Assembly: GCF_036507355.1 (NCBI RefSeq) | Contig: NZ_AP027877.1 | Reading direction: 5' to 3' (one strand) | Origin: Escherichia coli | Lineage (GTDB): Bacteria > Pseudomonadota > Gammaproteobacteria > Enterobacterales > Enterobacteriaceae | DNA: 64,000 bases | Program-made: the position numbers and the translations under genes | Notes under the pieces: model-generated | Seen by the model: the letters and a program-made list of their open reading frames with translations, nothing else | What the model was told of the DNA's origin: nothing | Database searches by the model: none | Part shown: in pieces, positions 4,337-9,790 of the stretch | Layout of the letters: each line of letters starts with the position of its first letter | How positions within the stretch are numbered: the stretch's first letter is position 1

Positions 4337-5236
4337 TTAACGCAATAATGGACAATCTGGTGGTAATCGACAACGCAACGCCGCCGGAAGTATTTCAATA
4401 TGGAAGTTTTGCCCACTCAACGGTTCGCCATCAAGATTAAAAGTGATTTCGTGTGGGGCTTGTATATCAAACCACGACGAAGCGCCTTCGATAATATTCG
4501 GGTTATCTTCGTCAGATTTTAAGGTTGATACGAGAGCCGGAAGAATTTCATCGCCGGTAAAAATGCGCAGTTGCAGCAAGCCATCGTTAATTAACGCGTT
4601 CGGGCACAATTGTTGACCGCCACCGGCCTGACGCCCGTTACCAATACCAATGACCAGGGCGTCACCTTGCCAGTGAAAGTTTTCACCGCGGATTTCACAA
4701 CGGTCCGGTTGCAGAGTATCCATGCGCATTAAGCCATGAATGATGTAAGAGACGCCACCCAGCGCGGCTTTTAATTTTTCCGGCGTTTCTGTGGTAATAC
4801 GCGTCCCAAATCCGCCTGTCGCCATATTAATAAAACAGGTTTGTTTGTTGACCTGCGCCATATCTATCGCAATGGCGTTACCGGCAATTGCCAGTTTCAG
4901 CGCCTTATCCAGTGCCTCAGGAATCCCTACACTGGTGGCAAAATCATTGGCGGTTCCTAATGGCAAAATTCCCAGCGCGGGTATGTCATCCCCCTCACAC
5001 TGAATCAACGCCGTAGAAACTTCATTAATGGTGCCATCGCCACCACCGGCAATCACCGTTGCGACGCCCAACTTCCGGGCCTCCTCTACATATCGTGCGG
5101 CATCGCCTTTCTCCCAGGTGACCCGCACATGGATCGTCATTCCTTCCTCACGCAACAGCATAATTGCTTCGCGCAATGGTAAATTGTCAGTACTTTTGCC
5201 ATTAAGAATCAGTAAGCTGGCGGGAAATTCTGCCAT
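4337..5236 (-). CDS. yegS: lipid kinase YegS (DAGK-family)
   Basis: 299-aa [19 protein letters not shown]... with GGDGT motif typical of diacylglycerol-kinase fold. Confidence 0.9.
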
Positions 5237-5626
5237 GATCGTATGTGCCTTTATGATTGGTCTGTAGATAGTGTAGAGCAGAAAAGAAAAGGTGGAGTCA
5301 GAACAGGATGAAAGTCGGAGGATAAATAGTCAGTTCAAGTATGGAGGATTCAGTGGTTACCACCAGGAGCTTGCAATGGGGACAGCGAATACTAACGGCA
5401 GCCACCGATAAATTTCAAAAAAGAGCATATACCTAATATTCAACTAAACAGTGGCATCTTCAATATAATATATTAAAGCCTCCATGGAGTTACCCGGAAG
5501 GGCCTCCATGTCCGTAATTCCTACTTATGTAGGAAATGTTGTACAGAACATTTATTATAATCCTATTCAATTATAATAATCATGCCATTATTATATTTAA
5601 ACACTAGAGAGTGTCGTTGGTATTTA

Positions 5627-5959
5627 ATGGGGGAAGGTGAGGTGAACAAGATAGCTGCTATATCATTAATTAGTGTTTTTCTTATGTCTGGTTGTGCTGT
5701 GCATAATGATGAGACAAGTATCGGTAAATTTGGTCTTGCATATAAAAGTAATATTCAGCGTAAACTCGATAATCAATACTACACCGAAGCCGAAGCTTCT
5801 TTAGCCAGGGGCAGAATTTCTGGTGCAGAAAATATAGTAAAAAATGATGCAGCCCATTTCTGTGTTACTCAGGGCAAAAAAATGCAGATAGTTGACCTGA
5901 AGACAGAAGGTGCAGGATTACATGGCGTCGCTCGTCTGACATTCAAATGTGGAGAGTGA
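5627..5959 (+). CDS. yegR: YegR, small putative lipoprotein of unknown function
   Basis: ORF with signal peptide and lipobox (LMSGC); start chosen at internal ATG (MGEGEV), upstream ORF extension unsupported. Confidence 0.6.
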   Translation: MGEGEVNKIAAISLISVFLMSGCAVHNDETSIGKFGLAYKSNIQRKLDNQYYTEAEASLARGRISGAENIVKNDAAHFCVTQGKKMQIVDLKTEGAGLHGVARLTFKCGE

Positions 5960-6117
5960 GAATATTTTTTGGTAAGCGCCAAACATGCGCGTTCTGGTTG
6001 TGCTTAGCCGGAACCTGTGCGAGCACGATGCCGTTACGTGAAAGGCATCGTGCTATGAAGGGAGATTCTATCGATGTGGTCAATGGAAGACGGTGACCAG
6101 GGATAGGGCTTATGCAT

Positions 6118-6204
6118 AAAAAATAAGCCCGTGTAAGGGAGATTACACAGGCTAAGGAGGTGGTTCCTGGTACAGCTAGCATTTTATGGGTTATGTTTTT
6201 CAGC
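6118..6204 (-). ncRNA. cyaR: CyaR (RyeE) Hfq-dependent small RNA
   Basis: Reverse complement of 6118-6204 reads GCUGAAAAACAUAACCCAUAAAAUGCUAGC...CACGGGCUUAUUUUUU, matching the CyaR sequence as I recall it, with terminal hairpin and U-tail. Confidence 0.85.
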
Positions 6205-6288
6205 GAAACGGATGATAACCTTAATAAATGCAGCTGTATGTGATCGGTTTCTAAGAATTTTCCATCCGGGAAAAATAATCGAAATTAA

Positions 6289-7650
6289 TCACTTACCGTG
6301 TGGGTTACGCGTGGTTTCCCCGGAGAAATTACGCATCAGCAGCGCGTAATTTAGCTCAAGATCCTGCGGCACCGGGAGCCACACAGTATAACCATCGCCT
6401 GGTGCTACCGGCATAGCTTCGCCTTTGGCGTTTTCCATGTGCTCAAGGGTAAAGTTAATGTTGCCTTGCGGCGTCATCAGCTCAAGGCTGTCGCCAACGG
6501 AGAATTTATTTTTCACCGCTACCGCCGCGAGGTCCCCCTTGCGCTCACCGGTAAACTCACCAACAAACTGCTGGCGGTCAGAAACTGAATAACCGTATTC
6601 GTAGTTCTGATAATCGTCGTGAGTATGACGACGCAGAAATCCTTCGGTGTAACCACGATGCGCCAGACCTTCCAGAGTTTCCAGCAGGCTGGTATCGAAC
6701 GGTTTTCCCGCAGCGGCGTCATCGATAGCTTTGCGGTAAACCTGTGCGGTGCGTGCGCAATAGTAGAAAGATTTAGTACGGCCTTCGATTTTCAGCGAAT
6801 GCACGCCCATTTTGGTCAGGCGTTCTACATGGGCGATGGCGCGCAGATCTTTCGAGTTCATGATGTAAGTGCCGTGCTCATCTTCAAACGCGGTCATATA
6901 CTCGCCCGGACGCTGGGCTTCTTCGATCATAAACACTTTGTCGGTTGGCGCGCCAATACCAAGCGTAGGCTCAACGTTTTGCACCGGAATCGGCTCGTAC
7001 TTGTGTACGATGTTGCCGACGTCATCTTCTTTACCTTCCTGTACGTTGTACTCCCAGCGGCAGGCATTGGTGCAGGTTCCCTGGTTCGGGTCGCGTTTGT
7101 TAATGTAGCCCGAGAGCAGGCAGCGACCGGAGTAGGCCATGCACAGTGCGCCGTGAACGAAGATCTCGATCTCCATATCCGGCACCTGATTGCGGATCTC
7201 TTCAATCTCTTCCAGCGACAGCTCGCGAGAGAGGATCACGCGGGTCAGGCCCATTTGCTGCCAGAATTTCACCGTCGCCCAGTTTACGGCGTTAGCCTGC
7301 ACCGAGAGGTGGATCGGCATTTCAGGGAAGTGCTCACGCACCAGCATAATCAGCCCTGGATCGGACATAATCAGCGCATCCGGCCCCATTTCCACCACCG
7401 GTTTCAGGTCACGGATAAAGGTTTTCAGCTTGGCGTTGTGCGGGGCAATGTTGACCACGACATAAAACTTTTTCCCCAGCGCGTGGGCTTCATTGATGCC
7501 GAGCTGAAGATTTTCGTGGTTGAATTCGTTGTTGCGCACACGCAGGGAGTAACGCGGCTGGCCCGCATAAACAGCATCTGCGCCATAAGCGAAAGCGTAA
7601 CGCATATTTTTCAGCGTTCCCGCCGGGGAAAGGAGTTCCGGTTTAAACAT
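6289..7650 (-). CDS. yegQ: U32-family peptidase YegQ
   Basis: 453-aa ORF MFKPELLSPAGTLKNMRYAFAYGADAVYAGQPRYSLR... characteristic of peptidase U32 family. Confidence 0.9.
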   Translation of the reverse strand: MFKPELLSPAGTLKNMRYAFAYGADAVYAGQPRYSLRVRNNEFNHENLQLGINEAHALGKKFYVVVNIAPHNAKLKTFIRDLKPVVEMGPDALIMSDPGLIMLVREHFPEMPIHLSVQANAVNWATVKFWQQMGLTRVILSRELSLEEIEEIRNQVPDMEIEIFVHGALCMAYSGRCLLSGYINKRDPNQGTCTNACRWEYNVQEGKEDDVGNIVHKYEPIPVQNVEPTLGIGAPTDKVFMIEEAQRPGEYMTAFEDEHGTYIMNSKDLRAIAHVERLTKMGVHSLKIEGRTKSFYYCARTAQVYRKAIDDAAAGKPFDTSLLETLEGLAHRGYTEGFLRRHTHDDYQNYEYGYSVSDRQQFVGEFTGERKGDLAAVAVKNKFSVGDSLELMTPQGNINFTLEHMENAKGEAMPVAPGDGYTVWLPVPQDLELNYALLMRNFSGETTRNPHGK

Positions 7651-7752
7651 AATTCTCTCGTTCTGATGACAGGTCAGATCCGCTTCACCTGATGAAGCGG
7701 TTAGGGGAGTGCCCCCACTTTAAGGGCGGGCATTGTAGCGCAATCGGCGGGT

Positions 7753-8049
7753 TTAGCTCCAGTGTAAATGTCTGGTGGCGTCCTGGTTTTGGTTAAGGAT
7801 ACGAATGACGATAATTTCCCCTGGTGATTGCAGGAAATAAATTACGTGGCGTTCAAAAGGAAGAACAAAAATACCTTCGCCTAATTCAGGTCTGGGCGTA
7901 CCTATATTATTGTTACTCAGAATCTGGAGAACGTCTGAAAGATGTTCCACATATCTGTCGGCTTGTGGTTCGCCGAAATGGTGATAACTGTAATACCAGA
8001 TGCCTTCTAAATCCTCATTGGCTTTTGGCATGAGTTTAATAATACGCAC
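7753..8049 (-). CDS. ParE/RelE-superfamily toxin
   Basis: 98-aa ORF immediately downstream of, and 1 nt from, an RHH antitoxin ORF; ParE-like sequence pattern (..IFY...I.IIRIL...). Confidence 0.75.
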   Translation of the reverse strand: MRIIKLMPKANEDLEGIWYYSYHHFGEPQADRYVEHLSDVLQILSNNNIGTPRPELGEGIFVLPFERHVIYFLQSPGEIIVIRILNQNQDATRHLHWS

Positions 8050-8050
8050 A

Positions 8051-8302
8051 TTATTTCCTTATCCCTGCTTTCACCTTCCGTAAAAACGCGTCCTTTTCCC
8101 ACGGCTGAGCTTCACCACTACTCAACCCTTCTGCAAGCATGTCACGTAACGCTTGCAGGCGAGACTCTGCTTGCTTTTCTCGAAGTAAGCGCAGTGACTC
8201 ACGGATCACTTCGCTTTGGGTGCGATAGTCGCCGGATTCAATTAAGGACTCGATAAATTCACGCAACTCATCGCCGAGATCAACCGTCATCGTTCTGGCC
8301 AT
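8051..8302 (-). CDS. ParD-like (RHH/COG3609-type) antitoxin
   Basis: 83-aa ORF MARTMTVDLGDELREFIESLIESGDYRTQSEVIRESLRLLRE..., typical ParD antitoxin; precedes toxin ORF. Confidence 0.75.
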   Translation of the reverse strand: MARTMTVDLGDELREFIESLIESGDYRTQSEVIRESLRLLREKQAESRLQALRDMLAEGLSSGEAQPWEKDAFLRKVKAGIRK

Positions 8303-8315
8303 GTTTATGCTCTCC

Positions 8316-8334
8316 TGTAAGTAAAAATCTTACA
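8316..8334 (-). promoter_or_regulatory. Inverted repeat TGTAAG-n7-CTTACA in promoter region of the ParDE-like operon (candidate autoregulatory operator)
   Basis: Perfect 6-bp inverted repeat about 15 bp upstream of antitoxin start. Confidence 0.4.
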
Positions 8335-8499
8335 TCAGTGTATGTCATAAACCGGATAGCGTCACGAAAGTATTAGAAGATATTTTGGCAGATGAACATG
8401 TTCAGGAGGATAAGCATGGAGATGTTAAACAAAGAAAGCACAATGAGTATTCATCAGTGTCCACTATTTTAATGGCGCAGGTAAATAAATAAGCGTTAT

Positions 8500-8537
8500 T
8501 TGGAAATAAAGCCGGACGCCAACAACCCACGCCCGGC
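8500..8537 (-). terminator. Rho-independent terminator downstream of yegP
   Basis: GC-rich hairpin GCCGGGCG...CGTCCGGC followed by TTTATTTCC on minus strand just after yegP stop. Confidence 0.5.
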
Positions 8538-8544
8538 ATCGTAA

Positions 8545-8877
8545 TTACGTATTGTCTTTCACCGTCTGGCTTGTGCCATTGGCTTTAACGGAGGCAATTC
8601 CGGTTTCACGAGATTGCGCGGTGGCATACATCTGGCTGGAGCCGATAATTTGATGATTGGCGGCTTTCAGATTGAAATAGAATTTGCCGTTGCTTGCCGT
8701 TTTTTTCTCATAGCGTTCTTCTTGCGGGCTGTTGCTACGCACCGACGCGATGCCCTTTTCCGCAGAGGCTTTTGAGGTATACAGCTCGCTGGTGAGGATA
8801 GTCTCACCATTGCCCGCTTTTAGCACAAACCGGAACTGATTATCACTGCTCTTACTGAGTTCAAACCAACCAGCCAT
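8545..8877 (-). CDS. yegP: YegP (UPF0339/DUF1508 tandem-domain protein)
   Basis: ORF with internal tandem duplication (…KASAEKGIASVRSN… / …AQSRETGIASVKAN…); start at ATG MAGWFEL with upstream RBS. Confidence 0.85.
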   Translation of the reverse strand: MAGWFELSKSSDNQFRFVLKAGNGETILTSELYTSKASAEKGIASVRSNSPQEERYEKKTASNGKFYFNLKAANHQIIGSSQMYATAQSRETGIASVKANGTSQTVKDNT

Positions 8878-9067
8878 AATGACTCCTTGATTGAAATTGC
8901 TTATCGAAAACAGCATCTAAAGGTGCTGTTTACCGATTAAAGTATGAGCGATTTTCTGATGCCTGCCAGGGCGGAGAGATAATGTCAGTTTGCTGACCAT
9001 GCGTGGGATAATGTTGCCGGATCTGGTCTGAACGCCATCTCCGGCTAACAAAATAATGTCGCTAAAA

Positions 9068-9790
9068 CTAAACGATGCGGCAGGCGTCGGCTTCCCAGCG
9101 GTAACCGACGCCGTAAACGGCGCGGATAAATGACTGTTCGGCGTCGAGAGATTCCAGCTTGCGGCGCAGGTTTTTAATGTGGCTGTCGATGGTGCGGTCG
9201 GTTACTACGCGGTAGTCGTCATAAAGATGATTGAGCAATTGCTCGCGGGAGAACACTTTTCCTGGTTCGTGAGAGAGCGTTTTCAGCAGACGAAATTCCG
9301 CAGGCGTCAGGTCAAGCATTTTACCGCGCCATGAAGCCTGAAAACGACCTTCGTCGATAATCAACGGGCTTTCAGCATCCTGTTGCTGCAACTCGCGCTG
9401 CGGTTTGCAACGGCGCAAAATGGTTTTGACGCGCGCTACCACTTCCCGTGGGCTGTACGGCTTACAGATATAATCATCTGCGCCAATCTCCAGTCCGAGC
9501 AGGCGGTCGATCTCTTCGATTTTTGCCGTGACCATCACGATAGGAATGTCAGAAAAACGACGAATTTCCCGGCACAGCGTCAAGCCATCGGTGCCAGGGA
9601 GCATCAGATCCAACAGGATCAGATCCGGTGGTGTCTGGCGCACATACGGCAGTACCTGATCGCCGTGGCTGATAAGCGTCGGCGCATAGCTCGCAGCACG
9701 CAGATAATCAATGAGCAACTGCCCCAGCTTCGGTTCATCTTCCACGATCAAAATACGCGGTGTGTTTTCGTCGATTGGTAACTCGGTCAT
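9068..9790 (-). CDS. baeR: OmpR-family response regulator BaeR
   Basis: 240-aa ORF with receiver domain (LIVEDEPKL...D) and winged-helix C-terminus; overlaps baeS stop. Confidence 0.9.

Follow-up and report, generated by a model that had tools for sequence, protein, structure and literature searches.

The interval between yegP and yegQ (trhP) of the Escherichia coli chromosome studied here very probably carries an intact, canonical ParDE type II toxin–antitoxin operon, lodged in a 756-bp segment between the terminator of yegP and the -10 hexamer of yegQ/trhP. The window, that is, the whole stretch of 64,000 nucleotides that we analysed, had been predicted to hold a ParD/ParE-like module at this place, and family matches, fold and conserved residues support that assignment. 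The cassette is real but ordinary: RefSeq already names its products 'ParD family antitoxin' and 'RelE/ParE family toxin' in 1843 genomes, and as a ParDE system it is nothing new in kind.

Gene order and extent of the insert

The gene order in the window is mdtABCD-baeSR-yegP-insert-yegQ(trhP)-CyaR-yegR-yegS, with most genes on the minus strand. yegP ends with its stop at 8545 and yegQ starts at 7650; between them lie two minus-strand ORFs, parD (8302..8051) and parE (8049..7753). The antitoxin gene comes first in this operon, each gene is preceded by a Shine–Dalgarno sequence, and only base 8050 lies between the stop codon of parD and the start codon of parE. The original prediction of an 83-aa ribbon-helix-helix antitoxin followed, 1 nt later, by a 98-aa toxin agrees with both the ORF list and the sequence.

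Alignment of the window with O26, HH97 and HS, together with re-alignment of the junctions, placed the insert at 7742..8497 (756 bp) relative to the empty site of the K-12/HS type, which has 9 nt (CCCCCCACA, minus strand) instead. Homology to copies in other genera is limited to operator, parD and parE, from about 8335 to 7753. The interval first proposed for the module, 7753-8334, matches this stretch, but the full insert is larger. Neither terminal inverted repeats nor a target-site duplication were seen at the junctions 7741/7742 and 8497/8498, and no recombinase was found in the flanks of the cassette; on these three grounds we rejected a transposable element or an integron cassette.

The stem of the yegP terminator lies at 8511..8537 (minus strand), with a T-tract (TTTATTT) that reaches downstream to about 8504. 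The terminator-like site at 8523..8511 has the tail TTTATTTCCA, and its stem is common to the window and the empty site. The CyaR sRNA was located at 6121-6206 on the minus strand (Rfam, 100.7 bits), directly after yegR (5582-5959) and before yegQ. An Rfam E-value scan of 5200-9100 returned CyaR alone and no non-coding RNA in the insert. K-12 has both ogrK and yegZ, the latter a phage late-control-D pseudogene, between yegR and yegQ; this P2-like remnant is missing from the window, as had been claimed, and also from HS.

A perfect 12-bp palindrome, TGAACATGTTCA, is present at 8393-8404 on the upstream side of parD: about 30 nt lie between it and the predicted -35 hexamer, and about 90 nt between it and the ATG. 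The palindrome is kept in the E. coli alleles, and a repeat of such size is within chance expectation. An outer repeat, GTTTATG/CATAAAC (8303-8309 / 8346-8352), was discarded as specific to the window allele and either at chance level or not conserved.

The ParD antitoxin and its predicted operator

The antitoxin is a ribbon-helix-helix protein of the ParD family (PF03693). Its 83 residues, read from an ATG start, comprise an N-terminal ribbon-helix-helix domain and a predicted C-terminal toxin-binding region. The protein matched PF03693 at E=4e-19 (69 bits) and, weakly, RHH_1 as a second family; its score for TIGR02606 was 88.4 bits against a cut-off of 46.2. The best match in the PDB was PrpA (7ycs_D, E=1.9e-27), and further matches were V. 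cholerae ParD2 (7b22), Caulobacter ParD1 (3kxe) and M. tuberculosis ParD1 (8c24). Both the Pfam and the PDB alignments begin at residue 1-2. A Shine–Dalgarno sequence, AGGAGAG, is found at 8310..8316 (minus strand), 7 nt upstream of the ATG.

We modelled ParD and ParE as a single chain joined by a linker (AF2). ParE and ParD residues 50-80 reached a pLDDT above 90, and the ribbon-helix-helix domain, which needs a dimer, was at low confidence. The region of residues 50-80 is disordered in free ParD homologues. The model fits a ParD whose C-terminus would fold on ParE.

A perfect inverted repeat had been predicted in the promoter region. It is the palindrome TGTAAG-N7-CTTACA at 8316-8334, and it proved to be conserved as an operator-like element. 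The 6+6 inverted repeat is not significant by itself, with 19 such pairs occurring within 961 bp. However, of 61 parD loci in other species (Buttiauxella, Pantoea, Enterobacter, Proteus, Providencia, Pectobacterium, Legionella and others), 47 carry it without a mismatch and nine more with a single one, giving 56 of 61. Most of these loci have it 10-19 nt ahead of the ATG, between unrelated flanks. As a control, 80-nt windows were taken from the same 61 loci, and none of the 11,209 came within two mismatches of the palindrome. Conservation across species, and not the repeat itself, therefore argues that the palindrome is not due to chance.

The predicted -10 hexamer of the parDE promoter, TACACT, is located at 8337..8342 (minus strand), at the spacing found in loci with a perfect TATAAT. 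A tentative -35 hexamer, GTGACG (8360..8365, minus strand), lies beyond a 17-nt spacer. A generic promoter scan did not call this parD promoter, which scored 8 of 12 matches at a threshold of 9. In 47 of the 59 loci compared, the palindrome is preceded by a -10-like hexamer that ends 0-5 nt before it. Because the -10 is positioned just upstream of the palindrome, the palindrome would cover the predicted transcription start, where a ribbon-helix-helix autorepressor classically sits. The palindrome is likely the ParD operator, and the aligned loci suggest TGTAAG(A)-N-(T)CTTACA as the operator consensus for this ParD subfamily.

The number of palindromes differs among the loci. In the Legionella copies (L046-L068) there are two, 20-60 nt ahead of parD: one falls between the -35 and -10 hexamers, the other after the -10. 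The enterobacterial copies have a single operator palindrome.

Relatives on plasmids

ParD proteins 90-95% identical to that of the window were found in 437 plasmid records; most of these plasmids are conjugative, and most come from E. coli, Klebsiella or Salmonella. The linked ParE reaches only about 65% identity. In the two IncFIB plasmids examined, parDE is situated beside repB (L077 2501-3100 and L078 2501-3050) and has the same TGTAAG/CTTACA operator half-sites. The better conservation of ParD than of ParE held across all loci compared. Nucleotide identity is evenly about 60-80% over both genes, and recent module shuffling was rejected for this reason as the cause of the higher identity of ParD (~90% aa) than of ParE (~65% aa). 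The even identity therefore points to tighter constraint on ParD at the protein level, with no recombination breakpoint.

These plasmids raise the alternative that the cassette is kept because it protects its host from related plasmid modules, by anti-addiction or cross-regulation; ParE from IncFIB-type plasmids would then be countered, and the plasmid promoter repressed, by the chromosomal ParD. We consider it unlikely. The 437 records with a closely similar ParD, the shared operator half-sites and the position beside the RepB gene in the two IncFIB plasmids are all consistent with it, but the plasmid ParE shares only about 65% identity. ParD-ParE specificity can, moreover, switch with few residues, as is reportedly the case in studies of ParD3-ParE3. 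The even nucleotide identity of ~60-80% gives no sign of recent exchange either, and the IncFIB iterons beside the plasmid homologue contain no TGTAAG motif. The last result also leaves a PrpA-like control of plasmid copy number unsupported.

On the E. coli plasmid L077, ParD stands alone in the PLSDB partial gene table. tblastn matches to the toxin on several E. coli plasmids were fragmented.

Distribution and states of the site

The parDE cassette is present in 1843 of 5426 complete E. coli genomes (34%), always as a single chromosomal copy flanked by yegP and yegQ. A four-gene island (PcfJ, DUF1266, DUF4034 and a hypothetical protein) occupies the same site in 298 of the 5426 genomes (5.5%), and the remaining complete genomes, including K-12, HS and EDL933, have the empty site. 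yegP and yegQ are adjacent in K-12, as the predicted absence of the cassette from that strain had implied, and the comparison of the yegQ-yegP interval across E. coli places the cassette in about one third of the genomes rather than in all.

In E. coli SF-166 the island (L076 1770-6940) takes the place of window positions 7772-8483. It keeps the sequences of 7742-7771, which include the last 19 nt of parE, and of 8484-8508. Since both cassette ends are retained, the island has replaced the interior of a pre-existing cassette. We infer that the empty site is the ancestral state into which the cassette was inserted, because a precise excision that recreated TTTACC-17-TACAAT is unlikely.

Outside E. 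coli, a survey of one genome per species in 100,044 species found the cassette at the same site in E. whittamii only, and all other relatives in other genomic contexts. E. whittamii and the window share about 95-96% identity in parDE, about 88-92% in baeSR and 92-96% in yegQ; these figures are not decisive for a recent introgression from or to E. whittamii, which we did not adopt. The two genes either overlap by 11-35 nt in the relatives or stand 1-2 nt apart.

Many species have an intact and highly conserved ParD beside a truncated or frameshifted parE (L008, L011, L012, L018, L024, L026, L028 and L030), with the damaged parE about 250-550 nt downstream of parD. This pattern suggests frequent decay of the toxin gene that may leave orphan antitoxins.

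A role in phage defence had also been suggested for the module and found no support. As an anti-phage abortive-infection module the cassette would have general precedent, in that type II toxin–antitoxin systems act in phage defence, and its site is a variable hotspot; however, it is a solitary two-gene insert outside any defence island. No PADLOC family matched ParD or ParE at E<=0.01, and the phage genome collection contained one partial match to the cassette. A phage origin was rejected on the same two results, and the abortive-infection reading is quite improbable.

Leader alleles and the RefSeq annotation of parD

RefSeq (PGAP) flags parD as 'frameshifted' in 266917_2 and XH990, strains identical to the window, and annotates the parD of the majority allele as a gene of 98 aa that begins at an ATG 45 nt upstream. 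The conflict over the parD start concerns window positions 8303-8348 (L003 5299-5596; L004 1799-2095). Within the 13 nt that precede the true ATG, the leader of the window allele differs by one additional nucleotide and four substitutions, yielding AGGAGAG; this Shine–Dalgarno sequence is confined to the window allele and E. whittamii, and AGGCGGG stands in its place in the majority allele. The window leader, which is shared with E. whittamii, occurs in about 98 of the 1843 genomes.

We think that the 98-aa RefSeq model is an over-extension and that the 83-aa ORF is the real gene, for four reasons in the compared sequences. The MARTMTV start is common to ParD homologues in Citrobacter, Salmonella, Klebsiella, Pantoea and others. 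The 15-aa extension is translated operator. The predicted -10 box follows the upstream ATG (8348..8346) after 3 nt, so that this ATG would lie ahead of the transcript. Finally, the window allele has its own Shine–Dalgarno sequence at the shorter start. The position of the 'frameshift' is upstream of the conserved parD start, and the pseudogene label looks like an annotation artefact. Residues 1-83 of the window ParD match residues 16-98 of the protein annotated in the majority allele without a difference, and the ParE proteins of the two alleles are 100% identical. The five coding differences between the alleles are all synonymous, which argues for purifying selection on both genes. The 98-aa model and the pseudogene calls, in about 100 genomes, probably need correction.

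These comparisons bear on the possibility that the module is defective, with parD a frameshifted pseudogene and the cassette a decaying remnant whose toxin is inactive or silent. Besides the PGAP calls in 266917_2 and XH990, about 20 of the 61 relative loci have no intact parE directly downstream (by ORF criteria, with some of them at contig ends), several of these are clearly truncated or frameshifted, and both genes are broken in HH97. Against this stand the conserved MARTMTV start downstream of the 'frameshift', the good Shine–Dalgarno sequence of the window allele and the identity of the 83-aa ParD and of ParE to the majority allele, which make a defective module very improbable in the window.

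The ParE toxin

Within the RelE/ParE fold, the toxin is a member of the ParE clade. parE encodes 98 aa from a GTG start, with AAGGA 7 nt upstream, and its product matched PF05016 at E=1.8e-13 (51 bits). All five significant sequence matches in the PDB were of the ParE type: PrpT (7ycs_A, E=2.3e-12), M. tuberculosis ParE1, Caulobacter ParE1, V. cholerae ParE2 and Mesorhizobium ParE3. An AlphaFold (AF2) model built from 26 homologues reached a pLDDT of 91.4. When this model was compared with the PDB by Foldseek, the top 23 matches were all ParE-type, with TM scores of 0.83-0.87 for the best five.

In an alignment with the toxins of related loci, the window ParE kept all invariant columns (A10, D13, I17, Y20, Y33, H68, R83, L85 and D90) and the near-invariant L6 and G26. 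The original prediction had named the lack of conserved ParE residues as grounds for doubt, and every column conserved among the relatives is kept. Variation between H, S and N at the 'RILNQ' position is normal among Enterobacterales copies.

That the toxin is instead a RelE-like, ribosome-dependent mRNA endonuclease and not a gyrase poison is highly improbable: PF05016 spans the whole RelE/ParE superfamily, the RefSeq name is equally broad in wording ('RelE/ParE family toxin'), and RelE, YoeB and YafQ appear among the weaker Foldseek matches, but only after the 23 ParE-type ones (E>1e-3, TM 0.5-0.65), RelE, YoeB, YafQ and HigB are not among the matches of the PDB sequence search, and the partner, a PF03693 ParD, is the antitoxin class paired with ParE (PMC7848731).

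By analogy with RK2 ParE, V. cholerae ParE2 and M. tuberculosis ParE1, the window ParE would be a DNA gyrase poison, although the homologues behind this analogy share only 26-32% identity with it, and the nearest ones with a proven gyrase target 26-31%. For PrpT, the closest homologue, no target is reported in PMC7848731 or PMC9731233, and some chromosomal ParE toxins are described as only weakly toxic (PMC6368863).

The predicted yegQ/trhP promoter

At the empty site, an intact promoter-like sequence, TTTACC-17-TACAAT, precedes yegQ (L001 3133-3161). The insertion junction falls in the spacer of this predicted promoter (window 7732-7760 and 8498-8512). In the window the predicted -10 hexamer, TACAAT, remains at 7732..7737 (minus strand), now apart from its -35 box, which the insertion has displaced by 756 bp; the -35 position reads GGAGCT. 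A scan of the window found no minus-strand promoter-like site at the yegQ -10, and no terminator-like structure was found between parE and yegQ. Since the promoter is split and no terminator follows parE, read-through from parDE into yegQ/trhP, the gene of a tRNA U34 hydroxylase, is possible.

A further-reaching proposal is that cassette strains express trhP mostly by read-through from a ParD-repressed parDE operon and that the chromosomal ParD cross-talks with IncFIB plasmids. We regard this combined proposal as unlikely. If true, a tRNA-modification enzyme would be linked to the state of a toxin–antitoxin module in one third of E. coli strains. Strains naturally differ in having or lacking the cassette and thus lend themselves to isogenic-like comparisons of trhP expression.

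The yegQ 5' leader (7680-7716) contains two GC-rich hairpins, CCGCTTCA-N5-TGAAGCGG and GGGGAG-T-GCCCCC (imperfect), with no T-tract after them. The hairpins are identical with or without the cassette (window, O26, HH97 and HS), and SF-166 has one substitution nearby.

Proposed mechanism and significance

The analysis establishes to which families the two proteins belong, the fold, the anatomy and intactness of the operon, the conservation of the palindrome and the insertion polymorphism. That ParD binds DNA, that ParE is toxic and acts on gyrase, and that the host gains any advantage we infer from what is established for the ParDE family. In the proposed mechanism, the N-terminal domain of ParD would bind as dimers to the two arms of TGTAAG-N7-CTTACA. 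Seated on the palindrome, 2 nt downstream of the -10 hexamer and over the transcription start, ParD would repress parDE. Its C-terminal region (about residues 50-80) would wrap around ParE and neutralise it. Depletion of ParD would free ParE, which would most probably poison DNA gyrase as the characterised ParE toxins do. The most economical reading of the function is a selfish addiction module kept on the chromosome.

Literature searches with the accession and the gene pair returned no paper on the cassette locus. In a 2025 review of the type II systems of E. coli, ParDE appears as a plasmid locus only and no chromosomal ParDE is listed, so that a common chromosomal E. coli system is missing from its list. 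The operator consensus provides a ready target for EMSA. A homologue of gyrase poisons that is polymorphic within the species bears on the relation between ParDE acquisition and quinolone tolerance or resistance (PMC10575684, PMC6614396).

Comparison with known systems

Among solved structures, PrpT/PrpA of the Pseudoalteromonas rubra plasmid pMBL6842 (PDB 7YCS, 7YCU, 7YCV and 7YCW; PMC7848731, PMC9731233) is the best homologue for both proteins. It has the same pairing of PF03693 with ParE, and PrpT superimposes on the window ParE with a TM score of 0.87 but at 32% identity. PrpA binds a TTTG(T/A)AAT motif in its own promoter (PMC7848731), which has the TGTAA core in common with the TGTAAGA of the window; the E. 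coli operator is, unlike that motif, a 6+6 palindrome with 7-nt spacing. PrpA is also plasmid-borne and binds the origin iterons, setting copy number, whereas the E. coli cassette is chromosomal.

V. cholerae ParD2-ParE2 (7R5A; PMC10776004, PMC3001019) likewise pairs a ribbon-helix-helix ParD with a toxin of the ParE clade (TM 0.84). Its autoregulation works through boxes that contain GTA, VcParD2 binding GGTA/GTA[C/T] (PMC10776004), and its ParE2 is a demonstrated gyrase poison. It differs from the window system in its three-box operator, its 6:2 repressor complex and its location in a superintegron cassette, and identity is about 31%. Caulobacter ParD1-ParE1 (3KXE) and M. tuberculosis ParDE1 (8C24) have the same fold and pairing, but at 26-30% identity, in other hosts and with other operators; TIGR02606 is named for the Caulobacter antidote CC2985.

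Within E. coli, other toxins of the ParE family are those of O157 PaaA2-ParE2 and of the plasmid ParDE-I (PMC6614396). PaaA2-ParE2 has a different class of antitoxin in a three-gene prophage module, and its toxin is 16-17% identical to the window ParE; the ParDE-I antitoxin is only distantly ParD-like. Further counterparts are the parDE loci on conjugative IncFIB/IncF plasmids of E. coli, Salmonella and Klebsiella, annotated by RefSeq and uncharacterised. They resemble the window cassette in gene order and in a ParD that is about 93% identical, but this ParD has 88 aa and its gene overlaps parE by 14 nt, whereas parD of the window stops 1 nt before parE.
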